Assembly: GCA_029265315.1 (NCBI GenBank)
Contig: JAJUJM010000008.1
Span: forward strand, 37,777 to 101,776
Length of the DNA stretch: 64,000 nt
Direction of reading: 5' to 3'
Origin: Actinomycetota bacterium
Lineage (GTDB): Bacteria; Actinomycetota; Coriobacteriia; Anaerosomatales; PHET01
Part shown: positions 19,774-36,844 of the stretch, one piece after another
How the letters are laid out: every line of letters starts with the position of its first letter
How positions within the stretch are numbered: the first letter of the stretch is position 1
Notes under the pieces: generated by a model
Told to the model about the DNA's origin: nothing
The model's input: the letters and a program-made list of their open reading frames with translations, nothing else
Database searches by the model: none
Position numbers and translations under genes: made by a program

Positions 19774-19801
19774 GGCCACCCTCCTTGGAGGACGCTTGTG
19801 A

Positions 19802-19807
19802 ATGATA
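19802..19807 (-). promoter_or_regulatory. Candidate -10 box TATCAT (minus strand) for the membrane-protein gene 19195-19773
   Basis: The reverse complement of ATGATA lies about 25 nt upstream of AAGGAGG/TTG 19773, in the divergent smpB intergenic region. Confidence 0.25.
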
Positions 19808-19844
19808 GTAACATCAGCGCCCGCGACGTGTACCGCGTCCGGAG

Positions 19845-20336: not shown

Positions 20337-20406
20337 CCGGGACTTCGCCTGACGGGTCCGGCACGGGATTCGCACGAGCGGTTCCCGTGAGTGGCCCGAG
20401 CGTGGG

Positions 20407-20412
20407 TATACT
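20407..20412 (+). promoter_or_regulatory. Candidate -10 box TATACT upstream of ssrA
   Basis: GGTATACTGT about 54 nt upstream of the mature tmRNA 5' end. The same TATACTGT is found upstream of the tRNA-Pro operon. Confidence 0.3.
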
Positions 20413-20465
20413 GTTTCCGTGCGTGACGAACGACTGGCACGTTGACATGGTCGGTGCCACCCTTC

Positions 20466-20818
20466 GGGGGTGACTGGTTTCGACACGATAGCTTTGACGG
20501 AGGAAGCAGGCCGAGGTCTCCTCGCCTCGTTAAACAGGGGTGCAGACGCTCAAGCGTCGACAATGACTTTGCCCTCGCTGCCTAGATAGAGCAGCGACGC
20601 CAACCGGTACGCGTCCCCGGTACCGCGACGGCGCCATTCAAGGGGACTGCTGCGAAGGACGTGGGCGGTATGCCTCTCGCATAAGATCGAACCGCCTGGG
20701 CGTGAGCACGTGGGTCACCGCATGTCGCTCAAGCCGAGATGCCAAGCGGTGACTGAGCCTGGAGATGCCTCCCGGGGGGCTACCGTGGACATGGGTTCGA
20801 CTCCCATCACCTCCACCA
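20466..20818 (+). ncRNA. ssrA: tmRNA (SsrA)
   Basis: 5' GGGGGTGACTGGTTTCGAC pairs with 3' ...CACCTCCACCA, giving an acceptor stem with a G3:U70 wobble. T-arm GGGTTCGACTCCC. Internal tag frame ends ...GAC AAT GAC TTT GCC CTC GCT GCC TAG (..DNDFALAA*). Confidence 0.9.
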
Positions 20819-20829
20819 GACATCGAGGT

Positions 20830-20851
20830 CCGGGCGCTACGGTGCCCGGTT
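20830..20851 (+). terminator. Stem-loop after ssrA (CCGGGC-N8-GCCCGG-TT)
   Basis: A 6-bp GC stem starts 12 nt after the tmRNA CCA end. The T tail is short. Confidence 0.35.
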
Positions 20852-20995
20852 GCGCGGCCTGTCGCTTTCGCTGAGCGGCGGGCCGTCACTTGTTCGTAGG
20901 GGAATACTCGTCTGAGGCGTCAAGAAGCGTCGGTCATGCGTGGACTCGCCGCTCGTGGGAGCGCGTGATCGCGGAGGGATGGGGGTGAGAAGCTG

Positions 20996-22648
20996 ATGGA
21001 CCCTGCGCGGGACATCACCTCTGCCGCCCTCGTCGAGGCCGCTGGCTTGCTCGGGACCGCGACGGTGCCGATCGCGCTGGTCGCTTCGGACGGCTCGGCG
21101 CTCTACTGCAACGATGCGTGGCGCCGGTTGATGGGCGAGCCGTCGACCGGTTCTTGGGGCTGGCTTGCAGCAGTGTCAGCTCCCGGTCGTGAGCGGGCGC
21201 GCCGTGAGTTCATCGCTGCTCTTGAAGAGTGTCGTTCGGGCGAGGTGGAGCTCTCGGTCACCGCGTCGGATGGAGCGTTGTCAGAAGTGGTGCTCGTGGT
21301 CGCGCCTATGCAACGAGGCCCGGCCGGCGCTTTGGTGCTCGCGTGGGACGTCACCGAGCGGCGTCGTAACGAGGACCGGCTCGCGTTCATGGCGGGCCAC
21401 GACGCGCTGACCGGGCTTGCGAATCGCAGGTCGTTCGACGAGGCGCTCGACCGGGCGGTGCATCGCGCCGCGCGCGGGGTGCGTTCGCATGTGCTGCTCC
21501 TCGACGTCGATAGGTTGAAGACACACAACGACACGCGCGGTCATGCGGCCGGCGATCAGGCCCTCGTCAATGCGGCGCTGTTGCTGAGGCGCATCGTCCG
21601 TGCCAGTGACCTGCCCGCACGCATCGGTGGAGACGAGTTCGCGGTCCTGCTTGAGGACTCCACCGCCGAGGAGGCTCGCGCGATCACCGAGCGCATCCGT
21701 CTGGCGGCGTCTGAGAACGGCCTGGCAGACGGTGGTCGCGAGACGGGGCTCGGGTTCTCGTGCGGCATCGCGGCCCTCGACGCCTCGGCGGATGCGCGGA
21801 CCGTGATGGAGAGGGCCGACGCTGCGCTCTATGCGGCGAAGTCGTCAGGGCGTAACCGCGTGGTCGAGTGGGAGGCTGCGCTCCACCAGGCAGACGCATC
21901 TGAACGAATCGCCTCGATCGTACGTGAGGCGTTCTCGCGCGACGGGTTCCATCTGGTGTACCAGCCAGTGGTCGATCTGGCCGACGGGTCGATCGCCTAC
22001 TTCGAGTCGCTCGTGCGATTGACCGCGCCTTCAGGTCGCGTCCTCATGCCCAGCGAGTTCCTGCCGGTCGTGGAGCGCCTCGGTATGATGCCGCGGCTCA
22101 CGCGGCGCGTGGTCGAGCTCGTGTTGTGGCAGATCGCCAATCTGCCGGGTCTGGATGTGTCGGTCAACGTCTCCGGCACGGACCTGGCCGACACAGAGCT
22201 TCTGCGCGACCTTGAGCAGGCCGTCCGGTCGAGCCGCGATGCGAGAGGTCGCTTCATCCTGGAGATCCCGGAAGCCACGCTTCTGGCCCACCTGGCGGGC
22301 GGGCGGGACTGGATGGAGACGCTATCGGACGCTGGGTGCCGGTTCGTGCTCGACGATTTCGGGACGGGTATCGGGATGTTCGTCCTGCTGCGCGAGCCGC
22401 ACGTGGAGAAGGTCAAACTGTCGCGTACCATCACGCGGGCGTTGGGTGTCGAGGACGGCCGCAGTGCGTTCGTGAAGGCGTTGCGTGAGCTGATCGAGTC
22501 GCAGGGCAAGTCCGCGGTCGCGACGTATCTGGAGACTGAGCGCCTCCTCGGCGAGGCCCGACATGCCGGCTTCAGGCTTGCGCAAGGGTATCGCATCGGC
22601 GAACCGCAACCGGACCTTGCCAAGCTCGCTGAGAGTCTGCGGACCTGA
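20996..22648 (+). CDS. PAS-GGDEF-EAL c-di-GMP signalling protein
   Basis: N-terminal PAS-like region. RASD I-site 5 aa before GGDEF (RIGGDEFAVLL). EAL domain with YFESLVR and DDFGTG motifs. Confidence 0.85.
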   Translation: MDPARDITSAALVEAAGLLGTATVPIALVASDGSALYCNDAWRRLMGEPSTGSWGWLAAVSAPGRERARREFIAALEECRSGEVELSVTASDGALSEVVLVVAPMQRGPAGALVLAWDVTERRRNEDRLAFMAGHDALTGLANRRSFDEALDRAVHRAARGVRSHVLLLDVDRLKTHNDTRGHAAGDQALVNAALLLRRIVRASDLPARIGGDEFAVLLEDSTAEEARAITERIRLAASENGLADGGRETGLGFSCGIAALDASADARTVMERADAALYAAKSSGRNRVVEWEAALHQADASERIASIVREAFSRDGFHLVYQPVVDLADGSIAYFESLVRLTAPSGRVLMPSEFLPVVERLGMMPRLTRRVVELVLWQIANLPGLDVSVNVSGTDLADTELLRDLEQAVRSSRDARGRFILEIPEATLLAHLAGGRDWMETLSDAGCRFVLDDFGTGIGMFVLLREPHVEKVKLSRTITRALGVEDGRSAFVKALRELIESQGKSAVATYLETERLLGEARHAGFRLAQGYRIGEPQPDLAKLAESLRT

Positions 22649-23559
22649 TGGTGAGAGGCCGTGCAGGTCATGGCGGACCATGCGCCGCAGAGGGTCACGA
22701 GGCGTCTCGACGTGACGCAGTCGTCTCCGTCGGTCCCCACCGTGCGTTGACCGGTGTGCTCGAGGGTGTCCGAAGCACCGCGTACGGCGTCACATGGCTT
22801 GCCGGCGACTTCGGCGATGAACCTGCCGTTCGACATCCGGCTTCCTTGATCGCTCGCGTGTGTGCTCTCGACGTGGAGTTCGTGTTCGTCGATGCGGGCG
22901 AACCTTGGGCGGACGCGCTGTGTGAGGAGCTCGGCCGAGCGGGGGTCGAGCCTGCCTGGGCGGTGCCGGGCCCACTTTCCCGTGCTGCGGGGAGCCTGGG
23001 TTGGGGGCTCGTGATGAGGGAGTCGGCCAGAGACCCGGACTCACTCGCCCGTCGAGTACAAGACGGTATGCCCGCTGTGCTCGAGGACATCGCCCGGGGA
23101 GCCGATCTGGGCGCACGCGTGTTCGTCCTGGCCGATGAGCTGGCATCGTCTGCCGGATGGCTCGTCGATCCCACCTTCGTGCGGAGCTGGCTTCTCCCAA
23201 CCTATGCGCCCTTCGTCACATCAGTGAGGGCGAGCGGTGGCCACGCGATGTTGCATTCAGACGGCGACATCGTCTCGCTCGTCAGTGATGTGGCCGAGCT
23301 CGGGTTCCGCGCGATTCATCTAGGGCCGGGGGCTGCGACTCCTGACGCGGTCAGGGCCGTGCGCGCCGCTGGGGTCGTGCCCGCAGGCGGCGTCTCGGTC
23401 CGCGAGGCACTTGAGAATCCGGAACAGGCTGTGACCGCATCGATGTCTCTCGCTTCGGAGGGGCCGATGGTGCTCTGTGACGATGGCGCCATCGCATCGA
23501 CCGTCGAATTGCACGCGGTTGCGAGGGTGCTCGCGAGCCTGCGGGGTCAACAGTGCTGA
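22648..23559 (+). CDS. Hypothetical protein, weak uroporphyrinogen-decarboxylase/MtaA-like (URO-D fold) resemblance
   Basis: TGATG coupling to the upstream gene. C-terminal half (FVLADELA...AMLHSDGDI...GFRAIHLGP) resembles URO-D family barrels. The assignment is tentative. Confidence 0.35.
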   Translation: MVRGRAGHGGPCAAEGHEASRRDAVVSVGPHRALTGVLEGVRSTAYGVTWLAGDFGDEPAVRHPASLIARVCALDVEFVFVDAGEPWADALCEELGRAGVEPAWAVPGPLSRAAGSLGWGLVMRESARDPDSLARRVQDGMPAVLEDIARGADLGARVFVLADELASSAGWLVDPTFVRSWLLPTYAPFVTSVRASGGHAMLHSDGDIVSLVSDVAELGFRAIHLGPGAATPDAVRAVRAAGVVPAGGVSVREALENPEQAVTASMSLASEGPMVLCDDGAIASTVELHAVARVLASLRGQQC

Positions 23560-23619
23560 ACTGGTGGTCCGACACGCGCGACACGACGTGATTCCAGCTA
23601 CCGAGCACCACGGTCTACG

Positions 23620-23628
23620 TGCTAGGAT
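23620..23628 (+). promoter_or_regulatory. Candidate extended -10 promoter TGCTAGGAT for the chemosensory operon
   Basis: One mismatch from the TGCTAGAAT motif. Lies 80 nt upstream of GTG 23708 in a 148-nt intergenic gap. Confidence 0.3.
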
Positions 23629-23707
23629 TGCGTAGCGCGCGGCTACTCGCCCAGGGGTGAGGCGCGCGCTGGACGGCCGGTTCTCCCTATGACGAAAGGC
23701 CCGTTTC

Positions 23708-24454
23708 GTGGCGCTCGAGGGCAACCTCAAGGACTTCTCCCTCTCTGACATGTTCCGTCTGCTCCAGACCGGGGCCAAGACGGGGGTGTTGCACATCGAC
23801 CGCGAGGGCGCGCACGGCGTCGTCTGCTTCCGTGACGGCCAGGTCTACCACGCAAGCGCGTCGGGCACCTCCGAACCTGCGGGCAAGCGACTGGCCAAGA
23901 CGGGCGTGGTCTCCGAGAAGCAGCTGCGACAGGCGCAGGGCCTGATGAAGATACAGAAGAAGGACAAGGCCGAGCGCAAGCTGGGGCAGATCCTCGTTGA
24001 CGAAGGCTACTTGGAATCCTCAGTGCTCGAGGACTTCGTCCGTGAGGTCGTCGCCGATGCGCTGTTCGACCTCATGAGGTGGGAGGAAGGCGAGCTGCGT
24101 TTCGAGCCCGACGAAGTCGTCGCTGACGCGGACCTGGGCATCACCGTGCCTGTCGACGGAGCGCTCGCCGATGCGGCGAGGCGGCTCGAGATGTGGAACC
24201 GCATCCGTGAGAAGATACCTTCCCTCGACACCCGGTTCGCCATGTCTGGGACGCCCGGGGGCAAGTCGGGCGACATCCACCTGAAGCCGCGGGAGTGGAT
24301 GCTTCTGTGCTACCTGCATGGCAGCCGCAGTGTGAGAGAGCTCATCGAGCTCACCGGCTACAGCGATTTCGACACAGCCAAGATCCTGTACGGCATGTAC
24401 GCCGCCGGGCTCATCGAGAAGGTCGGACCCGCGGGCGAGCGGCTTGAGGACTGA
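23708..24454 (+). CDS. PATAN/DUF4388-domain protein with C-terminal wHTH-like region
   Basis: GTG start. N-terminal LEGNLKDFSLSDMFRLLQTGAKTGVLHI...FRDGQVYHA is the DUF4388 signature. First gene of the che operon. Confidence 0.75.
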   Translation: MALEGNLKDFSLSDMFRLLQTGAKTGVLHIDREGAHGVVCFRDGQVYHASASGTSEPAGKRLAKTGVVSEKQLRQAQGLMKIQKKDKAERKLGQILVDEGYLESSVLEDFVREVVADALFDLMRWEEGELRFEPDEVVADADLGITVPVDGALADAARRLEMWNRIREKIPSLDTRFAMSGTPGGKSGDIHLKPREWMLLCYLHGSRSVRELIELTGYSDFDTAKILYGMYAAGLIEKVGPAGERLED

Positions 24455-24459
24455 CGACC

Positions 24460-25989
24460 GTGCATGAGGATTCGCTTCGCAAGGACCTCACGCCTGCCGA
24501 GTTCCAGCTGTTCCGGGACTGGATCCACCAGCACTCCGGGATCTTCTTGGAGGAGTCGAAAGCCGATTCGCTCCGTATCTCCCTCGTGACCCGGGCGACA
24601 CGCCACGACTTCACCGATTACCGCGACTACTTCCGGCTGCTTTCCAATGACGAGGACGAGTTCAAGGAGCTCATGAACCTCGTCACGATCAACGAGACGA
24701 GCTTCTTTCGCTTTCCGGCTCAGTTCGAGGCCTTGCGTGACAAGGTGATTCCCGAGATCCTCGACGGTCGTCCTCAGGGGGCTCCCCGGCAGTTCCGGGT
24801 GTGGTCGGCCGGCTGCTCGACCGGTGAGGAACCGTACACCCTGTCGATCACCCTCCTCGAGTCATGCCTCGAAGGGCTTGGCTACACCTTCGAGGTGGTC
24901 GGCACCGACGTCTCGACCCAAGCGCTCGACCGGGCGCGCAAGGCCGTGTATCCGGAGCGAGCCGTCGCCAATCTCGCGCCGGCCGTGGTCCAGCGGTGGT
25001 TCGAGCCCGTGAGCGGCGGCTACCGGCCGATCAAGCGGGTGCGTGAGAAGTGCTCTTTCCACTTCCACAATCTGATCAAGGAACCGTATCCGCTGGCCCT
25101 CATGAGCAACTGGGACGTCATCTTCTGCCGCAACGTCACCATCTACTTCAAGGTCGAGTCGACACGGCGAGTGGTCGACCACTACTTCGACGCGCTGAAC
25201 CCCGGGGGATACCTGTTCATCGGTCATTCCGAGACGCTGACCTCTATCTCCGACCGCTTCGAGCCGGTCGAGATCGGCGGCGTGTTCCTCTATCGCAAGC
25301 CTCATGTCAAGCGAGCGCTGTCGTTCGAAGACGTCATGGCGCGCCGTCAGCGCAGGAGCGGGGTCAGACCCGTGAGGGAGAAGCCACGGGAGGACACGGC
25401 ACCCGGGACGAAGGGGGCGCTGCCGTCGCTGCGCTCACACCGGGCCGCGACCGAGCCCGAGCCTGAGCCTGAAGTGAGTCAGGCCGAGCAACTCATCGCC
25501 CAAGCCAAGGCGCGGCTCGAACAGGCGAGCGCCGCGGAGGCGTTGGTACTGGCCAACGAAGCCGTGACGCTCGAGCCCGACAACATCGAGGCCCACCTGG
25601 TGGCCGCCTTCGCCTACGCCGACCTGGGCAAGCTCGAAGAGGCGATGGAGCAGGCCGAGACGGTGCTCGCCACCTATCCGCTCACCGCCGGTGCGCGCTA
25701 CATCATGGGCGTGATACAGCAGCAGCGGGGCAACATCGACGAGGCGATCGCTGAATTCAAGCGCACCATCTACATCGATCCCGATTTCGTGCTGGCGCAT
25801 TTCGCCATCGCGAACCTGCAGCGTCAGCAGGGCAACGTCGCCGACGCGTGCCGGGAATACGAGAACACCTTGAGGGCGCTGTACGCGAAGCCCGAGGGGT
25901 CATGGACGGCGTTTCTCGGAGGCTTCAGGCCTGATCTTCTGGCGAGGAGTTGTGAGCGTAGTCTGATAGAGTGTGGACGTGGCCGATAG
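24460..25989 (+). CDS. cheR: CheR-type chemoreceptor methyltransferase fused to C-terminal TPR repeats
   Basis: ETSFFR and SAGCSTGEEPYTLS SAM-binding motifs. C-terminal ~150 aa are TPR-like repeats (as in FrzF/WspC). Confidence 0.85.
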   Translation: MHEDSLRKDLTPAEFQLFRDWIHQHSGIFLEESKADSLRISLVTRATRHDFTDYRDYFRLLSNDEDEFKELMNLVTINETSFFRFPAQFEALRDKVIPEILDGRPQGAPRQFRVWSAGCSTGEEPYTLSITLLESCLEGLGYTFEVVGTDVSTQALDRARKAVYPERAVANLAPAVVQRWFEPVSGGYRPIKRVREKCSFHFHNLIKEPYPLALMSNWDVIFCRNVTIYFKVESTRRVVDHYFDALNPGGYLFIGHSETLTSISDRFEPVEIGGVFLYRKPHVKRALSFEDVMARRQRRSGVRPVREKPREDTAPGTKGALPSLRSHRAATEPEPEPEVSQAEQLIAQAKARLEQASAAEALVLANEAVTLEPDNIEAHLVAAFAYADLGKLEEAMEQAETVLATYPLTAGARYIMGVIQQQRGNIDEAIAEFKRTIYIDPDFVLAHFAIANLQRQQGNVADACREYENTLRALYAKPEGSWTAFLGGFRPDLLARSCERSLIECGRGR

Positions 25990-26063
25990 CTCTGTGATGT
26001 AGCGGCTCTGCCGAGTTCACGGGGTGTACGCGGCCGGACCATGGGACGAGGGGAGTCACCCGT

Positions 26064-26444
26064 ATGGCGACAGCGCGGATTCTCGCGGTAGACGACAGCC
26101 CGACCATCCTTGAGATGATCAAGGCGATCCTCATCGCGGGCGGCTATGAGGTCATCACCGCGGCGGACGGTGCTGAGGCACTGGAGAAGGCCCGAGCGGA
26201 GATGCCCGACCTGATTCTGCTCGACGTGATGCTTCCCAAGCTGGACGGGTACCGGGTGTGCCGTCTGCTCAAGTTCGACCAGAAGTACAAGGGTATCCCC
26301 ATCATCATGCTCACGGCCAAGACGGAAGAGCAGGCGATGGCCACAGGCATCCGCACAGGCGCCAACCAGTACCTGACCAAGCCCATCGAGCCGGAGAAGC
26401 TCCTTGCTGCGGTCGCCGAGGAGCTGGCCAAGGCGCAAGGCTGA
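26064..26444 (+). CDS. Single-domain response regulator (CheY-like receiver)
   Basis: Receiver motifs ILAVDDS, phospho-acceptor LILLDVMLPKLDG, MLTAK, and K in YLTKP. Confidence 0.85.
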   Translation: MATARILAVDDSPTILEMIKAILIAGGYEVITAADGAEALEKARAEMPDLILLDVMLPKLDGYRVCRLLKFDQKYKGIPIIMLTAKTEEQAMATGIRTGANQYLTKPIEPEKLLAAVAEELAKAQG

Positions 26445-26458
26445 TAGGGCGGGGAGAC

Positions 26459-28276
26459 GTGCCGGAGTCGAACTCTATCGCGGGAAGGGTCTTGGACGCG
26501 GCGGTGGGCGCGGGGATGCTCGCCGTCGACCAGGTGTCGAGCGCTCGCGCCGAGTCGGTGGACGACGCCGGGGCCGGTCGCGTCCTGCTCGGGCGAGGAC
26601 TGCTCTCCTCAGAGCAGCTCGCCACGATCCTTGAGGACCATCTCGGCTTTCCGCGTGTCGACCTCGAGAGCTACGCGCCCGATGAAGAGGCGCTTGCGAT
26701 CATGCCCCCTGCAGTGGCCCGCGCACGCGACCTGCTGCCGCTGTTCGAGATCGAGGGAACCCTCACGGTCGCCATCGGACGTCCTGAAGACATCTTCGAG
26801 TTGGACGCCGTGGGTGCCGAGCTCGGGGTGAGCATCGACGCGGTGCTCGCGGACCCCCACGAGGTCACTGCCGCCGTTGCGCAGTACTTCGGTCAGGCAT
26901 CTCCGGTCGATGTGCCGTCGATCGACGTGCCTGCGGAGGACCTCGAGATATCCGCCTCCGACTTCTTCGAGCTCGGCGACGACACTCCAGTCGTGATGGA
27001 GGTCCCGTCTTCCGAGCCCGCGCCCGGCGAACACGCTCCGGCGCAGACGGTCGAGCAGGTCGTGGAGGCAGTCGCACCCGAAGGCGCTCCTTCGGTGGAT
27101 TTGGACGTGCTCGCGGTGGCGGACGAGCGCAAGGTCGCTGTGCTCGTGACCGATATCCTCGAGCAGGCCGTCGCGCGCGGTGCGAGTCGTATCCATCTGC
27201 TGCCGTACAAGACCGATTTCTTCCTCGTCTTCCGCATCAAGGGCCGTCTGGAGAAAGTGGCGAGCGCGCCACTGTCGATGCAGCAACCTTTGATCGATGG
27301 CTTCAAGTCGTTCGCGAAGCTCGGCGGGGTCGCATCGAACCGGCCCGCGCTCGGCCGCGTCCACGCCGACATCGCAGGCAAGCCGGTCGTGCTCACGCTC
27401 TCGTCGGTACCCACCGTCGCCGGTCAGCGTCTGGTCATCTCCATCAGCGTGCAGCGACCTCAGCCGCGCGACCTGGCCGAGATCGGCATGTCGGAGGCCG
27501 AGAGTCGCGCCCTGTACGCCATGGTCGAGCGAGGCCGGGGCATCCTGCTCGTCGCCGGGCCCGTAGGCGGGGGGCGCTCGACGACGTACTACGCACTCCT
27601 CCAGCATGCAGCACAGGTCGGCAAGACGGTGTATTCCGTCGAGCGCTCGATCGACTACGAGATCCCTGCGGTGGCGCAGGTGCTCGTGAGCCCTGGGCAG
27701 CCCATCGGTGCATCGAGCTACTTCGCGGCAGGCATGCGCCAGGACACGGACGTCATGGCGATCGACTCCATACAGTCGACGGAGGACGTTCACCTGGCCA
27801 TCGAGGCGGCTGGGCTCGGCAAGCTGGTCGTCGCAACGTTCGCCGGTGGCGACATCGTGCACGCGGTGCGCCGGATGCTCGATCTGGGGACGGAACCGGT
27901 CTCTTTGGCGAGTGCACTGACGCTCGGTGTCGCGCAGCGGGTCGTGCGCACCAACTGCCCGAACTGTTCGGTCGAGGAGCGGAGTCCTCTGGCATCACGC
28001 ATTCCGGGCGCCGAGCCCGGATTGACGTCGAAACGAGGCACCGGGTGCCCGAACTGCGGCAAGACGGGTTTCGCCGGCGCGACCATCGTCTATGAGGTGT
28101 TGCCCTTCACCGAGCCGGTGCGTGCGGTCATCGCGCGTGGCGGTTCTGCCGATGATATCGAGGCGGCGGCACGTGCGGCCGGGATGCGCCCGATGATCGC
28201 GTCCGGTTTGGCGAAGGTGAAGGAAGGCATCGTGAGTCCCGAGGAGCTCGATCGGGTCATGAGATACGCACAGTGA
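26459..28276 (+). CDS. GspE/PilB-family secretion-ATPase homologue with T2SSE_N domain and degenerate catalytic motifs (predicted pseudo-ATPase)
   Basis: GTG 26459 inside track ORF 26258-28276. N-terminal GspE_N-like domain. Walker A is GPVGGGRST (Arg for Lys). DSIQS replaces GEIRD. LGKLVVATFAGGD replaces TGHLVxSTLHTND. The tetracysteine CPNC...CPNC is retained. Confidence 0.8.
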   Translation: MPESNSIAGRVLDAAVGAGMLAVDQVSSARAESVDDAGAGRVLLGRGLLSSEQLATILEDHLGFPRVDLESYAPDEEALAIMPPAVARARDLLPLFEIEGTLTVAIGRPEDIFELDAVGAELGVSIDAVLADPHEVTAAVAQYFGQASPVDVPSIDVPAEDLEISASDFFELGDDTPVVMEVPSSEPAPGEHAPAQTVEQVVEAVAPEGAPSVDLDVLAVADERKVAVLVTDILEQAVARGASRIHLLPYKTDFFLVFRIKGRLEKVASAPLSMQQPLIDGFKSFAKLGGVASNRPALGRVHADIAGKPVVLTLSSVPTVAGQRLVISISVQRPQPRDLAEIGMSEAESRALYAMVERGRGILLVAGPVGGGRSTTYYALLQHAAQVGKTVYSVERSIDYEIPAVAQVLVSPGQPIGASSYFAAGMRQDTDVMAIDSIQSTEDVHLAIEAAGLGKLVVATFAGGDIVHAVRRMLDLGTEPVSLASALTLGVAQRVVRTNCPNCSVEERSPLASRIPGAEPGLTSKRGTGCPNCGKTGFAGATIVYEVLPFTEPVRAVIARGGSADDIEAAARAAGMRPMIASGLAKVKEGIVSPEELDRVMRYAQ

Positions 28277-28776
28277 GGCCATGGATGACCGAAGAGAACA
28301 CTCCACTGAGCGACGTTGACGAAGAGGGAACAGGGGTCCACGCGTATGTCGAGCGGGCCGTGGCGTTCTTCCTCGACGCGCAGCGCTACGCGCTTCCGAT
28401 CGACCGCGTTCAGGAGATACAGCAGATCGTCGCGTTCTCCGAGGTGCCGGGTGGTGGTACTGGCGTCGTCGGGATGATCAACCTGCGTGGCCACGTGATC
28501 CCGGCGGTTGACCTGCGCCGTATCGTTGGGCTGCCGCCGCGAGAATATGACCTCGAGACGCCCATGATCATCTGCCGCATCAAGGGCCAGCTCGTGGCAC
28601 TGGTCGTCGACGAGGTGCAGGACGTGCTGGAGCTGCCCGACGGTTGCCTGCAGGCAGCTCCGCCGATGCACGCCCTGTCCTCGAAGATGATCGGAGTCGC
28701 TCGCCTGGATGACGGCCTCGTCTATCTGCTCGACCTCGACCTGCTGCTCGGGCCGACGTTGTCGGGAGGGTGGTGA
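28273..28776 (+). CDS. cheW: CheW-like coupling protein 1
   Basis: GTGA overlap with the upstream gene. CheW fold motifs YALPIDRVQEI and GMINLRGHVIPAVDLR. Confidence 0.8.
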   Translation: MRPWMTEENTPLSDVDEEGTGVHAYVERAVAFFLDAQRYALPIDRVQEIQQIVAFSEVPGGGTGVVGMINLRGHVIPAVDLRRIVGLPPREYDLETPMIICRIKGQLVALVVDEVQDVLELPDGCLQAAPPMHALSSKMIGVARLDDGLVYLLDLDLLLGPTLSGGW

Positions 28777-29342
28777 TGACGATGGTCGACGGTCACGATG
28801 TGAAAGAAGCGAGCACGCTCGCCGAGACCGCTGAGGAGGTATTGCGGCGAAGGGCCGAATCACTCGCGCGAGAGACGCTCGAAGAGGAGGCCACGCACCG
28901 CCTTGCGCTGCTGCTGTTCCGCATCGCGGAGGAGTGGTACGCCGTGAAGGTCGCGGACGTGAGGGAGATCTTCCAGGAGTACGAGATCACGACCGTGCCG
29001 TGCGTGCCGGACCACATCCTCGGCGTGGTCAACGTCCGAGGCGAGATCCTGTCGATCACAGACCCTGCGAAGCTGATGCGTCTCGGGGCGGTCGAGGTGG
29101 GCGGCTCAGTCCAGCCGCCGGCGATCGTCATCGTCGCCGATGAGGTCGCCACCGCCATGGTCGTGGATGAGATCGGCGACATCGCCGAGGTTCCGGACGA
29201 TGCCGTCGAGCCGCCCATCAGCATCATCGACAGGGCCCAGGCCGAGTACATCGCCGGATCGGTGCACGTGGGCGACCTCATGGTCGGGCTCATCAACATT
29301 GAACGTATGCTTGAACCCGTCACGACGGGTGGACGACACTGA
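28770..29342 (+). CDS. cheW: CheW-like coupling protein 2
   Basis: Overlaps the CheW1 3' end. Motifs [12 protein letters not shown] and [14 protein letters not shown]. Confidence 0.8.
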
Positions 29343-29371
29343 GGCTCGCTTCAGACGATGTTGGAGGACTG

Positions 29372-30598
29372 ATGGGAATCTGGAAGCGCATCAACGGCAG
29401 GTTGCTGTACAAGATGACGTTCTTCATCGTCATCCTGCAGGTGGTGTTTCTCCTCTGCCAGTCCATCCTGATCTTCTCGTTGTTCAGAAGTCACCTCGAC
29501 GAGGATCCGGCGGTGCTTTCCGGCCTGCTGACGCTCTTGGGCGTCTCGGTGGTGCTGACCGCCGCGTTCGCTGCCGTGAACTATCTGCTCGTTCGTCGTT
29601 CCTTGGATCCGCTCACCGCGGTCGCCGATTCGGTGCGCGCCGCGTGCCAAGGAGAGATCGGGCGCAAGGTCGCCGTGAAGACCGACGACGAGATCGGCGT
29701 GCTTGCCTCCAGCTACAACCAGATGCTCGACCTCATCGTCTACCTGATCCGCCAGACGCAGGAATCGAGCCGACGTCTCCAGCAGTCAGCGAACGACATC
29801 CTGTCTGCGACCGAGCAGCAGGCTTCGGGTGCTGCTGAGCAGGCCGCCTCGATCTCAGAGACGACCGCGACGATGGAGGAACTCGCGAGCACGTACCGCC
29901 AGATCGCGGAGAACGCCGACCAGGTCGTGAGCATGGCCGAGGCCTCGCTCTCCAACGCCGAATCGGGCCAGCAGGCCGTCATGAACACGCTGACGTCGAT
30001 GGAGAACATCAAGAGTCGCACCCAGCAAAGTGCGAACAAGATCCTCGCCTTGGGCGAGCGCAGCCAGCAGATCGGCCAAGTCCTCACGATCATCAACTCC
30101 ATCGCTGACCAGACCAAGATCCTCGCGTTGAACGCGGCCATCGAGGCGGCGCGTGCCGGAGAGGCCGGCAAGGGCTTCAGCGTCGTCGCGATCGAGATCC
30201 GCAAGCTTGCCGAGTCGGTGGTGGAGTCGACCAGCGAGATCTCGACGATCATGACTGAGATACAGACCGCGGCCAACGAGCTCGTGATGTCCACCGAGCA
30301 GGAGCTCAAGCAGGTGCAGTCGGGTGTCGACCTGGCCCACGTGACAGGAGAGTCACTCGAGCAGATCCTCGAGATGGTCGAGCAGACCACCGTCGCGGCC
30401 AAGGAGATCAGCGCGGCGACGCAGCAGCAGAAGTCCGCGACAGACCAGGTGGTCAAGGCGATGCGCGAGGTCGCGGCGGTGGCGCAACAGACAGCCGCAG
30501 GCTCCCGCCAGGTCGCGAGTGCGGCAGAGCAGCTCTCGTCGATGGCAAGGGAGTCGAGCCAGGTGGGCTCGGCGTTCACGATCGTCGACGGCGCATAG
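29372..30598 (+). CDS. Methyl-accepting chemotaxis protein, 2 TM + HAMP, no periplasmic sensor domain
   Basis: Two TM helices separated by about 10 residues. HAMP ([15 protein letters not shown]). Conserved hairpin tip [37 protein letters not shown]. Confidence 0.9.
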
Positions 30599-30638
30599 GG
30601 CGCGCGGACAGCCAGGCACACGACAGGAAGGCGACGCC

Positions 30639-33068
30639 ATGGTCGAGTTCGACCGAAGCGCGTTCATAGCGAAGTTCCAAGAAGAGGCGCAGGACCTGCT
30701 CCAGCGCCTGAACGAGAGCGTCATCACGCTTGAGGGTGATCCGGAGAACCGTGAGCTCATCGACCAGATGATGCGCGACGCTCACACCATCAAGGGCTCC
30801 TCGCGCATGGTCGGGCTCATCGAGATCTCCGATGTCGCGCACTGGCTCGAAGACATCATGGTCAAGGTGCGCGATGGCGAGATGAAGTACACGCCGCAGA
30901 TGAGCGACTACTTCTTCGAAGCGCTCGACGCGATCGTGTACCTGGCGGACAACAACGGCGTGAACGAGGGCGGCCTGCTCGACCTCGACGGCCTCAAAGC
31001 GAAGTTGTCCGCTCTGGCCGAAGGCGGCACCGATGCGGCCAAGGCGGCAGAAGCCCAAGCGGCCGCCGCGCAGGACGCATCGGCTGTGGAGTCACCGCAG
31101 CCCGCTCCCAAGAAGCGCACACGGAAGAAGGCGGTACCCGAGGCCGAGGCCCCGGACCAACAGGGCAGCGCGCCCTCTGGGACTGACGAGCCCGAGGGCG
31201 CCGACGAGCAGGAAGCGCACGAGGACGAAGGCGACGAGGGCTCCGACAGCGCGAGACAAGAGGAGAAGTCGGCCGCCGTCGCGTCGAAGACGGCGCCCGG
31301 CAAGAAGGTGCCTGACGAGCTCAAGAGCAAGGTGCAGGCGACCATCCGTATCAGGACCACGCAGGTCGACTCGCTGCTCAACCTCATCAGCGAGGTGGTC
31401 ATCGGTCAGATAAAGGCCGAGCAGCGCGCGAACGAGATGCGGGCCATCCAGGCCGCCACCATGGAGACTTGGCAGACGTGGTTGCGCATGCGCTCGCTGC
31501 TCACGGCGCTTGACGAGCAGGGCGTCGCCGAAGGTCTCACCGAGGACATGAACCTTCTCGACACACGTCTGTCTGAGAGCCAACGCGCCCTGTCGGCGTT
31601 CGTCAAGGACTACACCGAGGACGTGAGTCGCACTTCCCTTGTCGTGAACGACCTTCAGGAGCAGGGCATGCGGCTGCGCATGCTGCCCGCCAACACCATC
31701 TTCCAGACGTTCCCGCGGGCGGTGCGCGACCTCGCCAAGCAGTTCAAGAAGGAGATCGATTTCCAGATCGAGGGTGGCGATACCGAGCTGGACAAGAAGG
31801 TCCTCGAGGAGATCAACGATCCGTTGGTCCACATCATGCGCAACTGCGTCGACCACGGCATCGAAGACCCCGAGACACGCAAGAAGCTCGGAAAGCCGCC
31901 GGTCGGCACCGTCAAGCTCGCGGCCCGTCAGGAGGGCGACCGGATCATCATCGAGATCACTGATGACGGTGCTGGGATCGACCCGGACAAGGTGCGCGAG
32001 TCCGCGGTACGCAAGGGCTACATCAGCGAGGCCGAGGCCGCGGCGATGTCCGACCGCGAAGCGATGTACCTCATCTTCGAGGCCGGTTTCTCCACTGCTG
32101 CGATCATCACGGAGATCTCGGGTCGTGGCGTCGGCATGGATGTCGTCCGCGAGTTCGTCGTCGAGAAACTCAAAGGTTCCTTGGACGTCGAATCCGAGGT
32201 CGGCAAAGGCACCCGGTTCAAGCTCACGATCCCGCTGACGCTCGCGATCATCCGCGCGCTGATGCTGCGTGTGGGCGACCAGATCTTCGCCATGCCGACC
32301 GGGTCGATCGATGAGACGCTGCGGATCGACCCGGCCGAGATCATCAAGGTCGAGGGACGCGAGGTGATCCGTCGCCAGCGTCGGACGATCCCGCTCGTGC
32401 GGCTCTCTGAGATCCTCGGCATACCCGCGCAGCCTCTGGAGGCGGCCAAACAACCAATCGTGACCATCGGTTACTCGGGGCACCGCATGGGGTTCATGGT
32501 CGACGGGTTCGTGGGCGAGCAGCAGATCGTGATCAAGCCGCTCGGCAGTCACCTGAAGAAGATCGACAACGTCGCGGGGGTCACCATCCTGGGCGCCGGC
32601 GAGGTCGTGCCGATCCTGAACATCCCTGACCTGATGGCCAACGCTCGCACCAAGTCGGGACAGCGTGTCGGTCCCGCGCAACGTGCCGAACGTGAGGGGC
32701 CGCGCAAGGTCCTCATCTGCGAGGACTCGTTCACGACCCGCGAGCTGGAGCGCTCGATCTTCGAGGCGGCCGGCTACGAGGTCGAGACCGCGGTCGACGG
32801 CGCACAAGGCTTCCAGAAGCTGCGGGACGGACTGAAGGTCGATGCGGTGGTGACTGACGTCCAGATGCCCAACATGACCGGTTTCGAGCTCACGAAGGCG
32901 ATCAAGTCGGACCCGACGCTGATGGCCATCCCCGTCATCATCGTGACGTCGCTCGAGCGTGACGAGGAGAAGGCAGAGGGCATCGAGGCCGGTGCGGACG
33001 CCTACATCACCAAGTCGGTCTTCAACCAGGACACGCTGCTCGACACGGTCGACCGCCTCATCCGCTGA
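30639..33068 (+). CDS. cheA: CheA histidine kinase fused to C-terminal receiver (CheA-CheY hybrid)
   Basis: ATG 30639 inside track ORF 30519-33068. HPt DAHTIKGSSRMVG, acidic linker, HATPase DDGAGID / GRGVGMDVV, CheW-like P5, C-terminal REC with DVQMPNMTG. Confidence 0.9.
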   Translation: MVEFDRSAFIAKFQEEAQDLLQRLNESVITLEGDPENRELIDQMMRDAHTIKGSSRMVGLIEISDVAHWLEDIMVKVRDGEMKYTPQMSDYFFEALDAIVYLADNNGVNEGGLLDLDGLKAKLSALAEGGTDAAKAAEAQAAAAQDASAVESPQPAPKKRTRKKAVPEAEAPDQQGSAPSGTDEPEGADEQEAHEDEGDEGSDSARQEEKSAAVASKTAPGKKVPDELKSKVQATIRIRTTQVDSLLNLISEVVIGQIKAEQRANEMRAIQAATMETWQTWLRMRSLLTALDEQGVAEGLTEDMNLLDTRLSESQRALSAFVKDYTEDVSRTSLVVNDLQEQGMRLRMLPANTIFQTFPRAVRDLAKQFKKEIDFQIEGGDTELDKKVLEEINDPLVHIMRNCVDHGIEDPETRKKLGKPPVGTVKLAARQEGDRIIIEITDDGAGIDPDKVRESAVRKGYISEAEAAAMSDREAMYLIFEAGFSTAAIITEISGRGVGMDVVREFVVEKLKGSLDVESEVGKGTRFKLTIPLTLAIIRALMLRVGDQIFAMPTGSIDETLRIDPAEIIKVEGREVIRRQRRTIPLVRLSEILGIPAQPLEAAKQPIVTIGYSGHRMGFMVDGFVGEQQIVIKPLGSHLKKIDNVAGVTILGAGEVVPILNIPDLMANARTKSGQRVGPAQRAEREGPRKVLICEDSFTTRELERSIFEAAGYEVETAVDGAQGFQKLRDGLKVDAVVTDVQMPNMTGFELTKAIKSDPTLMAIPVIIVTSLERDEEKAEGIEAGADAYITKSVFNQDTLLDTVDRLIR

Positions 33069-33080
33069 GAAGGGGGACTC

Positions 33081-34124
33081 GTGACCGACGGCAACAAGGT
33101 GCGCGTCGTCATCGCCGATGATTCGCTCGTCGCTCGCGAGATGCTCGCCCAGATCCTGAGCAGCGACCCGGACATCGAGGTCGTCGGACAGGCCAAGGAC
33201 GGGAGTGAGGCGGTCGAGCTCGTCGAGCGGCTGCGACCGGACCTTGTGACCATGGACATCCACATGCCCAAGCTCGACGGGCTCAGGGCGACCGAGAAGA
33301 TCATGGCGTTCACGCCGACGCCCATTCTCGTCGTCTCTTCCTCGGTTCACGGCGAGGGCATGGGCAGGGCATTCGACGCGCTGAACCTCGGTGCCCTCGA
33401 GGTTATCAAGAAGCCCGAGCCCCGGGACTGGGCCGAGCTCGACCGTATCGGTCGCGAGGTCATCCGCAAGGTCAAGATCCTCGCCAACGTCCGGGTGATC
33501 ACGCACATCCGTGGGCGCAGGGGCATCTCTCAGGTCGCGGCGCCGGTACACGCGGGCAAGGCCAAGCGTTCGCTCGTGGCCATCGGTTCGTCCACCGGGG
33601 GGCCATCTGCGCTTCTCGCGGTCCTCGGAAGGCTGCCGCAGGACTTCCCGGTGCCGATCGTGGTGGCGCAGCACATCGCCGACGGGTTCGTTCCCGGCCT
33701 CGTGAGCTGGCTCGACTCGGGGTGCCGCATACGGGTGGTGGCGGCCTCCGATGGTCAACGGATCGAGCCTGGCGTGGCACATTTCGCGCCCACCGGTTCG
33801 AACATGGTGCTCGACGGCACCACCATCAGGTTCCAGCCGCCCGGCCGGGGTCAACTCTACATCCCAAGCGCGGACACCTTGTTCGATTCTGTCGCGGTCA
33901 GCCATGGGAATCGCGCCGTCGGGGTGTTGCTCACCGGTATGGGGGCGGATGGCGCCGAGGGGCTCAAGCTGATGCGCAACAAAGGTGCGGCGACCATCGC
34001 TCAGGACGAGGAGACCTGCACGGTCTTCGGTATGCCCAAGGCGGCCATCGACATCGGAGCAGCCGAGAAGGTGCTCCCAGTCACGAAGATCGCCGAGGCG
34101 ATCGAGGAGCTCATCGCCGGCTGA
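33081..34124 (+). CDS. cheB: Chemotaxis response-regulator protein-glutamate methylesterase CheB
   Basis: GTG after GAAGGGGGA. REC (VIADDS, MDIHMPKLDG) plus CheB esterase (GSSTGGP, AQHI, GMGADG, TCTVFGMP). Confidence 0.9.
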   Translation: MTDGNKVRVVIADDSLVAREMLAQILSSDPDIEVVGQAKDGSEAVELVERLRPDLVTMDIHMPKLDGLRATEKIMAFTPTPILVVSSSVHGEGMGRAFDALNLGALEVIKKPEPRDWAELDRIGREVIRKVKILANVRVITHIRGRRGISQVAAPVHAGKAKRSLVAIGSSTGGPSALLAVLGRLPQDFPVPIVVAQHIADGFVPGLVSWLDSGCRIRVVAASDGQRIEPGVAHFAPTGSNMVLDGTTIRFQPPGRGQLYIPSADTLFDSVAVSHGNRAVGVLLTGMGADGAEGLKLMRNKGAATIAQDEETCTVFGMPKAAIDIGAAEKVLPVTKIAEAIEELIAG

Positions 34125-34346
34125 TAGCTTGTTCATCGTCGCTCATGTCGTGGCCGTTCATGCTCCGTCGAGAACCGCTCGACGATTTGCCCTCACTCGA
34201 TAGGGCTCGTGCTCGATGTTGACCCTAAACTCCCGACCTCACGACACCGATAGCGTCGTATGACGCACGAAGGCCGCACACCTCCCCGCCGGCATCGGGG
34301 ACGCGGCATGGCCTGCAATCGACAACGGAAGAAGGGGTGAGGGCGC

Positions 34347-35954
34347 ATGGCGCTCGGTGTCTACGTCTCCCGCTGCGCGGGACGGGTCGACGCCGCACTC
34401 GACGTCGGGGACGCGCTTGATGGCGTGGCCTCGCGGGCTGCGGTGACCCGGGTGTTCGACGATTTCTTCGATGTGGGTGTGGCGGACTCCATCGTCGCCG
34501 ATGTCTCCGCCCACGGTCTGGACGCCGTCGTCTTGGCCGGCCACTCGGAGGAGCACTACCGCAAGAGCCTGTCCGCGAGCCACCTCATCGACCGAATCGC
34601 GGAGGCGGGCGTCAACCCCAACCGCATCGTCGCTGCCAACATCCTCGAACAGTGCGCGCTGGCGCATCCGGACGACCGCGCGGGCGCCACCGCGAAAGCC
34701 CGGGCCATCATCGGTGTCGCTGCGGACAGGGCCGGCTCCGGTGATGCGGTCGAGGGCGAGAGCGTCCGGCCGAAGTGCTCGGTCATGGTCCTGGGGGCGA
34801 GCGCGGAGGCGTTCGTCGCGGCGCAACGCCTGCTTCGCCTGGGGTACTCCGTCGTGCTCGCCGATCGCGAGGACGGCTGCGCCCGGGCCGGCAGGGCCCA
34901 GAGCATGCACGCGACGGCTTCGTACGTGCTCGGGCACCCGGCGGCCACGATCGTCGACAGCTCGCGGCTCGTCGATGGGGACGGGTTCCTCGGTGACTAC
35001 CACCTCGTCTTGGAGTCGCCGGAGGGCACGGTCACCTACGAGGTCGGGGGCATCCTGCTCGCGCGTCCTGACCACACGGAGTGGGTGGAGGAGCTGCGGC
35101 GTCACTTCCGCGTGGACGTCGACGATTCGGGGTTCGCCCGGTCGCTTGACCCGACGATGCACCCCGCTGAGACCGTGGACGAGGGCATCATGGTCATGCC
35201 GTTGCGTCGGAGCGATGCCAAGGAGTCAGAGAAGGTCGCTGCGGCCGACGCTGCGGCGATGGCGCTCGTGCTGAAGCTGTCCCATGACACGGTCGTACGG
35301 TACCGCCACACCTCGGTCGTCGATGAGTCCCTGTGCGGAGGCTGTGCCACATGTGTGCGCACGTGCGCGTTCGGTGCCTGCTACATCGGTGACGACGGGT
35401 TCAGCCACGTCGACGCCCGTCGCTGTGTGGGCTGTGGCAAGTGCGTCGTGAGCTGTCCGGTCGGAGCCAGAGACATCCTGAGCTCGCCGCACGACCATCT
35501 CATGCGCGCCGTGCGGGACCTCGCACAGGTCGAGACCACCTCCGACAAGGTGATCGGGTTTCTGTGCGGAGGGTGTGGCTACCCCGCCGCGGACCATGCG
35601 GCGAAGACCGTCGCGGAGCGCGGCGAGGGATACCCCTCATCATTCCTGCCCGTCCGGATTCCGTGCGGCGGGCGGCTCGACACGCTGTACGTGCTCGAGG
35701 CGTTCAAGGCCGGCTTCGACGGCGTGTGCGTGTATCGGTGCCGGGACGGTCACTGTCACAACCGGGTGGGCAACCTCGACATGGACCGGCGAGTGAATCT
35801 ACTCCGCACGGTGCTGCGCAGTCGAAACATCGATGACGCCCGCCTGCGCATCGTCGACATCTCGCCGTTCGAGGGCGACCACTTCGTCGACACACTGAAC
35901 GAGGTGTACGCCACGATCGGCGGCCTCACGAACGGGAAAGGAGGTGCGTTGTGA
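34347..35954 (+). CDS. HdrA-like / 2x[4Fe-4S] ferredoxin / MvhD-domain fusion protein (hydrogenase-associated electron-transfer subunit)
   Basis: CGGCATCVRTC...CVGCGKCVVSCP ferredoxin motifs. C-terminal MvhD/FlpD-like FLCGGCGYP...IPCGGRL...YRCRDGHCHN. The Rossmann region reads VLGASAEAF, so GxGxxG is degenerate. Confidence 0.65.
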   Translation: MALGVYVSRCAGRVDAALDVGDALDGVASRAAVTRVFDDFFDVGVADSIVADVSAHGLDAVVLAGHSEEHYRKSLSASHLIDRIAEAGVNPNRIVAANILEQCALAHPDDRAGATAKARAIIGVAADRAGSGDAVEGESVRPKCSVMVLGASAEAFVAAQRLLRLGYSVVLADREDGCARAGRAQSMHATASYVLGHPAATIVDSSRLVDGDGFLGDYHLVLESPEGTVTYEVGGILLARPDHTEWVEELRRHFRVDVDDSGFARSLDPTMHPAETVDEGIMVMPLRRSDAKESEKVAAADAAAMALVLKLSHDTVVRYRHTSVVDESLCGGCATCVRTCAFGACYIGDDGFSHVDARRCVGCGKCVVSCPVGARDILSSPHDHLMRAVRDLAQVETTSDKVIGFLCGGCGYPAADHAAKTVAERGEGYPSSFLPVRIPCGGRLDTLYVLEAFKAGFDGVCVYRCRDGHCHNRVGNLDMDRRVNLLRTVLRSRNIDDARLRIVDISPFEGDHFVDTLNEVYATIGGLTNGKGGAL

Positions 35955-36844
35955 GCAGGCCGACACTCGCCACGGTATCACTCGGAGGCTGCGAAGGCTG
36001 CCACGTCGCGCTGCTCGACGCACACGAGCGTCTGCTCGACCTGCTGGCGGCCGCCGACCTCGTGCACTCGCCCTTCAGCGGCGAGGAGGAGATACCCGAG
36101 AACGTGGACGTCGTGATGGTCGAAGGGGCCATCACGACCGAGGAGGACCTGCGCCGACTGCTGGCGGCCCGCGCTGCCGCGACGACGCTCGTCGCCGTCG
36201 GGTCCTGCGCGGTGCTCGGGGGCATAGGCGGGCTGCGCAACCTGGACCCGGTCGAGGAGGTGACGGCGACGGCGTTCGGTGACGCGGCGGGGTCGAAGTC
36301 CGAACGGCTCCCGCGCTTGCGTCGCCGCGTCCAGCCGGTCACTGACTTCGTGGACGTCGAGATCAGCGTGCCGGGCTGCGCGCCCGAGACCCAGCTCATC
36401 GTCGACGCGTTGACGGCGGCCGTGACGGGGACCCCGTACGAGCTGGACCGCCGTAACCTGTGTGACGAGTGCCCGCGTGAGAAGCAGACGTTGCTCGAGC
36501 ACTCCTCGGAGTTCGTCTCTGACAGCGTGGTGGCCCTGATGGAGCTCGATGAGATCGACGAGAAGCGCTGTCTGCTCGAGCAGGGTCTCATCTGCATGGG
36601 CCCGATGACGCGTGAGGGCTGCGGAGCCAAGTGCACGTCGATGAACGTGCCGTGCCGTGGCTGCATGGGCCCGAGCCGCATGGAGTTCGAACAAGGCGCC
36701 AAGACGATCGACGCGCTGGCGGCGGTGCTGCCGGCGGGCGCGATCATGTACATGGACGACCTCATCGGGACGAGCTACCGGTTCTCGATGCCGGTGTCCG
36801 TGTTCCCCGCGGCCTACCAGCATGAAGGAGGCGAAGATGCCTGA
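35951..36844 (+). CDS. [NiFe] hydrogenase small subunit, group 3 (MvhG-like)
   Basis: GTGA overlap with the upstream gene. LGGCEGCH proximal-cluster motif. GSCAVLGG. C-terminal Cys clusters CDECP...CMGPMTREGCGAKC...CRGCMGP. Confidence 0.8.
   Translation: MSRPTLATVSLGGCEGCHVALLDAHERLLDLLAAADLVHSPFSGEEEIPENVDVVMVEGAITTEEDLRRLLAARAAATTLVAVGSCAVLGGIGGLRNLDPVEEVTATAFGDAAGSKSERLPRLRRRVQPVTDFVDVEISVPGCAPETQLIVDALTAAVTGTPYELDRRNLCDECPREKQTLLEHSSEFVSDSVVALMELDEIDEKRCLLEQGLICMGPMTREGCGAKCTSMNVPCRGCMGPSRMEFEQGAKTIDALAAVLPAGAIMYMDDLIGTSYRFSMPVSVFPAAYQHEGGEDA

Follow-up and report, generated by a model that had tools for sequence, protein, structure and literature searches.

A 64-kb stretch of an Actinomycetota genome assigned to the Anaerosomatales (contig JAJUJM010000008.1; the whole stretch that was analysed is hereafter termed the window) was found to contain nine tightly packed genes between positions 23708 and 34124, all on the plus strand, which together form a chemosensory operon that also encodes a PATAN protein and a PilB homologue. 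The first gene (23708-24454) encodes a stand-alone PATAN (DUF4388/PatA_N) protein of 248 aa (PF14332, 109.5 bits), and is followed by a gene for a CheR methyltransferase with C-terminal tetratricopeptide repeats (TPR) of the FrzF/WspC type (24460-25989), in which CheR_N, CheR (179.6 bits) and, at residues 340-475, several TPR models were matched. A single-domain CheY-like receiver (REC) of 126 aa (26064-26444; Response_reg, 105 bits) precedes the PilB homologue of 605 aa (26459-28276), referred to here as pseudo-PilB, which matched the Pfam T2SSE model over its full profile (217 bits) as well as MshEN (54 bits). Next are two CheW genes (28273-28776 and 28770-29342; Pfam CheW, 110 and 93.7 bits, respectively), followed by those for a methyl-accepting chemotaxis protein (MCP) receptor (29372-30598; Pfam HAMP and MCPsignal), a CheA-REC hybrid kinase of 810 aa (30636-33068; Pfam Hpt, H-kinase_dim, HATPase_c, CheW and Response_reg) and a CheB methylesterase with an N-terminal receiver (33081-34124; Pfam REC and CheB_methylest; NCBIfam CheB, 364.5 bits against a cutoff of 342). 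All nine domain assignments made in an earlier note on this DNA, which had been drawn up from the sequence alone, were thus backed by Pfam, including those of DUF4388 and T2SSE.

The spacing between consecutive genes, as calculated from their coordinates, was +5, +74, +14, -4, -7, +29, +37 and +12 nt, in agreement with the earlier description of gaps of 74 nt or less and two overlaps. The first cheW gene starts 4 nt inside the end of the pseudo-PilB gene, an overlap that suggests translational coupling, and itself overlaps the second cheW gene by 7 nt. Two start codons were revised: that of pseudo-PilB to a GTG at 26459, which follows a GGGGAG ribosome-binding site and gives a length of 605 aa that agrees with all homologues (the longest PilB-like reading frame would start at 26258, within the REC gene), and that of CheA to an ATG at 30636, instead of 30519. 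A simple consensus scan found no promoter-like sites inside the operon, and the four terminator-like sites within it, compared with 4.5 expected from shuffled sequences, are at chance level. A search of positions 19000-39000 for RNA families, riboswitches included, returned tmRNA as the sole match. An antisense reading frame of 1014 codons lies opposite cheA and cheB (31092-34136, minus strand), as is usual in high-GC sequence.

Pathway class and signalling components

By gene content and order, the operon is best read as encoding an alternative-function (ACF, Frz/Wsp-type) pathway, and not a flagellar one; this reading is drawn from composition and order, the NCBIfam models for CheA and CheW being generic and not class-specific. 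The ACF-like features comprise the CheR-TPR protein, the CheA-REC hybrid, two CheW proteins, one MCP of the 40-heptad (40H) class and CheB, which bears out the earlier view of the core set as ACF/Frz-like. Marks of the type IV pilus (Tfp) class, exemplified by Pil-Chp and Tax, were not seen, in that no pilus locus with an intact ATPase is linked within 10 kb and the kinase possesses a single Hpt domain.

The receptor consists of two transmembrane segments with a loop of approximately 15 aa between them, then a HAMP domain and a 40-heptad signalling domain, and has no ligand-binding domain. Its heptad class was derived from alignment lengths, there being no net indel relative to a model of P. 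aeruginosa CtpM (353 versus 355 positions), whilst the protein is 28 aa longer than enteric 36H models. The hybrid kinase is arranged as one Hpt domain, an acidic Ala/Pro-rich linker, P3, P4, P5 and REC, with no P2; the Hpt match was single, and not multiple, at residues 50-138 of the long reading frame. In the single-domain receiver, residues D10/D11, D54, T84 and K106 are all present, though its sequence is generic and has PleD REC1 and PhoP as its closest matches. This protein is the sole free regulator of the operon, with no multidomain response regulator serving as an output.

Of the known systems, the Frz pathway of M. xanthus comprises FrzA, FrzB, FrzCD, FrzE, FrzF and FrzG, with FrzX and FrzZ acting on MglA/MglB polarity. 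Frz shares with the operon a CheW-CheW-MCP-CheA/REC order, a CheR-TPR protein and CheB, along with a CheA bearing one Hpt domain and an Ala/Pro-rich linker, and a single-domain receiver as the likely output; a small Ras-like GTPase is also common to both, but only in the distant relatives of the operon described below. Conversely, Frz has a cytoplasmic receptor, its cluster contains neither PATAN nor a PilB paralogue, and MglA is encoded elsewhere, whereas the operon's host is a monoderm actinobacterium and the GTPase of its relatives matches Arf/Ras models weakly. The Pil-Chp and Wsp systems of P. aeruginosa likewise resemble the operon in having two CheW proteins, one 40H MCP, CheR, CheB, a CheA-REC hybrid and single-domain receivers, and Wsp also has a CheR-TPR protein; they differ in the multiple Hpt domains of ChpA and the Wsp output via REC-GGDEF, and neither has PATAN or an ATPase paralogue. 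CheR-TPR proteins have been reported to occur mainly in ACF pathways and to be nearly absent from Gram-positives (PMC3447774), and the actinobacterial setting is therefore unusual, as had been remarked previously.

The PilB homologue and the PATAN protein

Pseudo-PilB has the architecture of MshEN/N1, N2 and an ATPase-fold C-terminal domain (CTD), and Foldseek searches with its AlphaFold model (pLDDT 77) gave PilF, PilB and GspE as the top matches (E 1e-33). Its scores against the NCBIfam equivalogs were far below their cutoffs (TIGR02538 PilB, 269 bits against 675; TIGR02533 GspE, 267 against 630). A residue-level alignment with the Geobacter PilB structures 5tsg and 6olj revealed that the Walker A motif GPTGSGKT has become GPVGGGRS, the Asp box EDPVE has become ERSID, and the Walker B motif GEIRD has become DSIQS, with loss of the catalytic Glu; in the His box, GHLVLSTLHT is replaced by GKLVVATFAG, so that both histidines are gone. 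The Cys4 zinc motif, by contrast, has been kept (CPNC ... GCPNC, versus CSEC ... GCVKC in Geobacter PilB).

Amongst 25 homologues with 64-91% identity, P-V-x-G-G-R-S, including the Arg in place of the Walker A Lys, YSVERS and the Walker B remnant D-S-x-Q were invariant, as were the zinc cysteines, and the His-box histidines were missing from all 25. Invariance of the altered motifs across this set argues that they are not products of decay; they are under strong purifying selection. Judged from these alignments, which support the earlier claim that the catalytic residues had been lost, the PilB homologue is predicted to be a pseudo-ATPase devoid of every catalytic motif. Within the Anaerosomatales, N2 and CTD are its best conserved domains (72-85%), whilst in distant members it is N1b (residues 63-147) that is best conserved, at 44-51% compared with 25-38% for the N2, CTD and C-terminal domains.

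It could be argued that pseudo-PilB is still an ATPase, acting via non-canonical residues to power some machine, since the P-loop glycines and the Arg-for-Lys exchange are invariant and, within the order, the one-time active site ranks with the best conserved stretches of the protein. Against this, the Walker B Glu, the acidic residues of the Asp box and both His-box histidines have been replaced, some distant members have no P-loop at all (APAANGAA, APAGQSVG), and no platform or pilin gene lies nearby; we consider residual motor activity the least probable of the explanations weighed here.

The PATAN protein gave a PF14332 match split across residues 4-164, the core of the domain being broken by a helical alpha-clip insert at approximately residues 58-123 in the AlphaFold2 model (pLDDT 78), and ends in a helical, possibly winged-helix, tail of about 60 aa. 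It is not fused to a receiver, since the PATAN gene ends at 24454 and REC is a separate gene from 26064, beyond cheR.

Both PATAN and pseudo-PilB carry elements that could bear on cyclic di-GMP (c-di-GMP). The MshEN motif is a tandem 24-residue repeat, RLGxx(L/V/I)(L/V/I)xxG(L/V/I)(L/V/I)xxxxLxxxLxxQ (PMC5013675), and binding of c-di-GMP by the pseudo-PilB MshEN domain was discounted after both the strict and the relaxed motif failed in all 25 sequences, a Geobacter PilB control fragment being positive. Residues 59-112 of PATAN (23882-24043) matched the MshE-related c-di-GMP motif NF053729 of NCBIfam with 29.8 bits, below its cutoff of 38, and the second repeat, [RK]LGQILVDEGYLExxVLExFxxxQ, fits the relaxed motif of Wang 2016 in 17 of 23 orthologues. 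A gene encoding a PAS-GGDEF-EAL protein (20996-22648) lies upstream of the operon and recurs there in many relatives. The MshEN domain or the PATAN alpha-clip might accordingly bind c-di-GMP made or degraded by this syntenic enzyme, and so merge the two signals. However, the window's own PATAN fails the relaxed motif because its second repeat ends in V, only one of the two half-sites is present, and the PAS-GGDEF-EAL gene is parted from the operon by variable genes; this explanation ranks just above residual motor activity and is regarded as highly doubtful.

A role for the pathway in controlling gene expression, with the PATAN tail binding DNA in the manner of a winged helix and pseudo-PilB as a cofactor, comes next in plausibility but is still very improbable. 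In its favour, the AlphaFold2 model places three helices and a hairpin at residues 194-245, and one distant orthologue (locus L085) gave a weak match to HTH_27 (E 0.009). The tail is nevertheless modelled with low confidence (pLDDT 47-75), no helix-turn-helix family scored above threshold, and Han et al. judged a DNA-binding role of PatA-type proteins to be unlikely.

Conservation in the Anaerosomatales and in distant relatives

When each GTDB species was represented by one genome, 74 loci encoding members of the pseudo-PilB family were recovered, all from metagenome-assembled genomes that carry the label Coriobacteriia, Anaerosomatales or unclassified Actinobacteria. By tblastn with the window proteins, the order PATAN-CheR-REC-pseudoPilB-CheW-CheW-MCP-CheA-CheB was found in practically all loci of sufficient length, and in 40 loci each of the nine genes was covered to at least 70% by a single high-scoring segment pair. 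Recurrence of this order in some 74 species genomes argues that the arrangement is not due to chance. The operon always occupied one chromosomal site, with SmpB and a URO-D-like gene upstream and an Asp/Glu racemase and RNase PH downstream, which marks it as a trait that is ancestral in the Anaerosomatales and has been inherited vertically. In the window, the SmpB gene and tmRNA (tag peptide VDNDFALAA) lie at 19845-20818, just upstream of the operon, for which they provide a synteny anchor.

Median identities to the window proteins were 92% for REC, 72% for MCP, 70% for CheB, 66% each for CheA and PATAN, 60% for pseudo-PilB, 56% for CheR and 55-56% for the CheW proteins, with a value of 79% for the housekeeping SmpB. 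The receiver is therefore the most conserved gene product of the operon, above even SmpB, and such conservation suggests that it may have many simultaneous binding partners. No canonical T2SSE Walker A motif or prepilin signature was found within 10 kb in the approximately 74 orthologous loci, and the possibility raised in the earlier note, that the orthologous operons might be ordinary Pil-Chp clusters beside a type IV pilus locus, was accordingly ruled out.

An exhaustive HMMER search of representatives clustered at 50% identity revealed a graded family below this main clade. Members at 39-48% identity have more degenerate P-loops (SPIGEGAS, APAGSGAE, APAANGAA and APAGQSVG), and three at 32-34% identity (P0136, P0141 and P0134) retain partly intact motifs. 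Of these three, P0136 and P0141 lie on contigs of 33-36% GC, and P0134 on a 2.4-kb contig of 63% GC that shows only REC, pseudo-PilB and a partial CheW. A profile search started from the distant members drifted to genuine PilBs, gaining one close relative only. PATAN, REC and pseudo-PilB were thus found to accompany the che set both across the order and in distant low-GC lineages, a co-occurrence that the earlier note had proposed should be looked for.

In the distant low-GC loci L082/L084 and L085, the order is PATAN, a 170-aa P-loop protein, CheR-TPR, REC, pseudo-PilB, CheW and CheW, and L085 extends on to MCP, CheA-REC and CheB; the second CheW of L085 (12397-13242) carries an N-terminal zinc-ribbon domain. 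The additional protein, encoded between PATAN and cheR (L082, 7529-8044; L084, 7600-8115; L085, 7526-8038), is by its sequence matches a small Ras/Arf-like GTPase of the Ras superfamily: that of L082 exceeded the Pfam cutoffs for Arf (30.7 against 22.3 bits) and Ras (22.3 against 21.6 bits), and that of L085 matched weakly. Searches of the PDB gave weak Rab/Arf matches, and MglA structures were not among the matches listed. The GTPase is absent from all Anaerosomatales loci, the gap between PATAN and cheR in the window being only 5 nt, and no Roadblock/MglB gene was seen with the module. Its presence in the distant relatives points to polarity control.

A second informative case is L088 (68% GC), in which only PATAN and pseudo-PilB (5861-8449) occupy the operon's syntenic site. 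Directly after the pair come the racemase and RNase PH genes, and CheR, REC, both CheW proteins, MCP, CheA and CheB are absent; the P-loop of this pseudo-PilB is the more degenerate APAANGAA. As the pair has been kept in the absence of the che genes, PATAN and pseudo-PilB look like a minimal functional pair. Another locus, L089, seemed to have decayed che genes, but this was dismissed because the racemase, a housekeeping gene of that contig, is frameshifted as well, making assembly indels the likely cause.

The L088 pair also bears on the possibility that pseudo-PilB, perhaps as a hexamer, acts with PATAN as a scaffold that places the chemosensory array, or seeds its formation, at a pole or membrane site without carrying a signal. 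The overlap of the pseudo-PilB gene with the first cheW gene, retention of the hexameric ATPase fold, and the spatial control suggested by the Ras-like GTPase of distant relatives would all be in keeping with such a role. Persistence of the pair where the array genes are missing is not, and no precedent was found in literature searches, and this explanation is deemed improbable, if less so than a transcriptional one.

The remainder of the window is occupied by housekeeping functions, including SecA, RF2, FtsEX, RNase R, SUF, SmpB/tmRNA, trigger factor-ClpP-ClpX and tRNA synthetases, and no pilus or flagellar genes were present among the larger reading frames scanned across the whole 64 kb, in line with the earlier statement that flagellar and pilus structural genes are missing from it. 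Directly after cheB is a FlpD/MvhD-ferredoxin gene followed by those for the small and large subunits of a NiFe hydrogenase (34347-38249). This cluster also follows cheB in 10 relatives (L003, L006, L007, L024, L025, L030, L052, L053, L062 and L067), with a match to the two hydrogenase subunits only in L027, and a similar cluster stands directly before the PATAN gene in L085 (2221-6090). Such adjacency in two far-apart lineages might reflect a redox- or H2-related input, or might be coincidence. A second c-di-GMP turnover protein, of PAS-GGDEF type, is encoded at 54916-57684. Ahead of tig-clpP-clpX are a tRNA cluster (42086-42623; Pro, Gly, Arg, His and Lys) and a tRNA-Leu (43307-43391), whilst a minus-strand 'tRNA-Phe' call of 92 nt (58877-58968), inside an SNF2 helicase reading frame, is probably spurious.

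Proposed coupling of PATAN and pseudo-PilB to the chemosensory pathway

The operon probably encodes an ACF-type chemosensory pathway with a strongly conserved accessory module for which, as the earlier note had supposed, full-text searches (most subscription journals lying outside their scope) found no prior description, whether of a che operon with an embedded PilB pseudo-ATPase or of the PATAN/REC/PilB-like arrangement. A precedent for the link between PATAN and PilB is cyanobacterial. In Synechocystis, Han et al. found PATAN to serve PatA-type regulators as their output domain and to bind PilC and PilB1's N-terminal domain, so that the premise of PATAN-REC regulators acting on PilB1, from which the earlier note had argued, is accurate. 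The alpha-clip of PATAN is common to the N1 domains of secretion ATPases, and genes for MglA/MglB neighbour those for PATAN proteins (Han et al.; Wuichet and Sogaard-Andersen).

In the cyanobacterial Tax/Pil systems with PatA-type regulators (PixG, PixE and PilG), as here, PATAN and REC are tied to a CheA-REC pathway. In the operon, however, the two are separate genes with cheR between them, and there is a dedicated, catalytically dead PilB paralogue, along with CheR and CheB, and no photoreceptor MCP. The trio of PATAN, REC and PilB homologue postulated in the earlier note therefore holds as far as separate genes within a che operon are concerned, but the three are not contiguous, and the minimal unit retained in L088 excludes REC.

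The reading that we favour, tentatively and at somewhat less than an even chance, is that PATAN and pseudo-PilB constitute a functional pair coupled to the ACF/Frz-like pathway through the receiver, with pseudo-PilB as a non-motor adaptor or competitor. According to this proposal, CheA would phosphorylate the receiver, the PATAN protein would bind the N-terminal domain of pseudo-PilB, and the phosphorylated receiver would gate the resulting complex. The dead ATPase may then act as an adaptor or competitor at a putative pilus or secretion platform, or at a polarity hub, and could in this way govern whether surface filaments are built, or at which place, without powering their construction. The physical interactions and the target machine in this scheme are inferred by analogy with the cyanobacterial PatA-type regulators. 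Cultured members of the Anaerosomatales (Anaerosoma and Parvivirga) are non-motile rods with pili-like appendages, induced by ferrihydrite in one species, and these appendages would be a plausible target of the pathway.

Several observations weigh against this proposal. Between distant lineages pseudo-PilB is the fastest-evolving component, the low-GC relatives sharing with the window 27-31% identity in this protein compared with 65-72% in REC and 49-50% in PATAN. Its Walker A motif decays further in some lineages, which relaxed constraint would explain as well as a new function. The evolutionary rates of PATAN and pseudo-PilB, moreover, gave no specific covariation signal (partial r ~0) in a test that is crude, being based on identities to a single reference and making no correction for phylogeny. 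Finally, PilB of M. xanthus acts upstream of a che pathway, and not downstream as proposed here.

The last of these points leads to the strongest rival, in which a signalling-only, apo-like pseudo-PilB sits upstream of the kinase and informs the sensor-less MCP about the state of a pilus or secretion platform, and the receiver is either the true output or a phosphate sink. The M. xanthus Dif pathway is the model for this, as there a non-hydrolysing, apo-like PilB communicates with an alternative-function che pathway, and the Dif receptor is almost without a periplasmic domain, as is the MCP of the operon. A Walker A mutant of M. xanthus PilB, deficient in ATP binding and apo-like, signals upstream of the Dif MCP, CheW and CheA proteins independently of pilus assembly, and this, together with an MCP that has just two transmembrane segments and HAMP in place of a ligand-binding domain, is why pseudo-PilB could be an input. 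After removal of the shared trend, identities of pseudo-PilB across loci L003-L076 correlated most strongly with those of the adaptation enzymes CheR-TPR and CheB (partial correlations of 0.52 each, from the same crude test); the orphan TPR domain of CheR could, on this covariation, be in contact with pseudo-PilB. On the other hand, the L088 pair persists without che genes, indicating a che-independent role, the published data on PATAN place it on the output side, and the roughness of the covariation test reduces its weight. The analogy is also inexact, in that the PilB of Dif is a real motor that moonlights and is encoded in the pil cluster, whereas the operon has a separate dead paralogue fixed among its che genes, and Dif is without CheR-TPR, CheB and PATAN, all three of which are present here. 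An input role is considered unlikely, yet more credible than array organisation.

A bolder form of the favoured adaptor reading, which we hold to be possible though still unlikely, would make the dead secretion ATPase the hub of a switch that governs polarity or placement. Pseudo-PilB would form a non-motor oligomer whose N1 domain is bound by the stand-alone PATAN, with binding gated by the CheY-like receiver and, ancestrally, by a Ras-like GTPase, and the whole would amount to a self-contained, Frz-plus-MglA-like module.

How non-flagellar chemosensory pathways act on their targets is still poorly understood, and the arrangement reported here, in which a PatA-type regulator has been split by evolution into PATAN and REC proteins with a dead PilB partner in the same operon, offers a clean genetic and biochemical system in which to establish what PATAN does to the N-terminal domain of PilB, whether PilB signals without a motor role, as proposed for M. 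xanthus, and how small GTPases plug into such modules. It should be of relevance to those working on chemosensory outputs and on type IV pilus regulation. A pathway of probable ACF type with CheR-TPR is, in addition, hereby placed in a lineage of Gram-positives, the Anaerosomatales, a poorly studied anaerobic order that is widespread in the subsurface and in sediment and now has cultured, piliated representatives. If the switch reading is true, it would add a new class to the chemosensory outputs and provide the first case of a PilB that evolution has fixed for signalling only, and a polarity-switch module would decide where surface filaments are assembled in these monoderm anaerobes.

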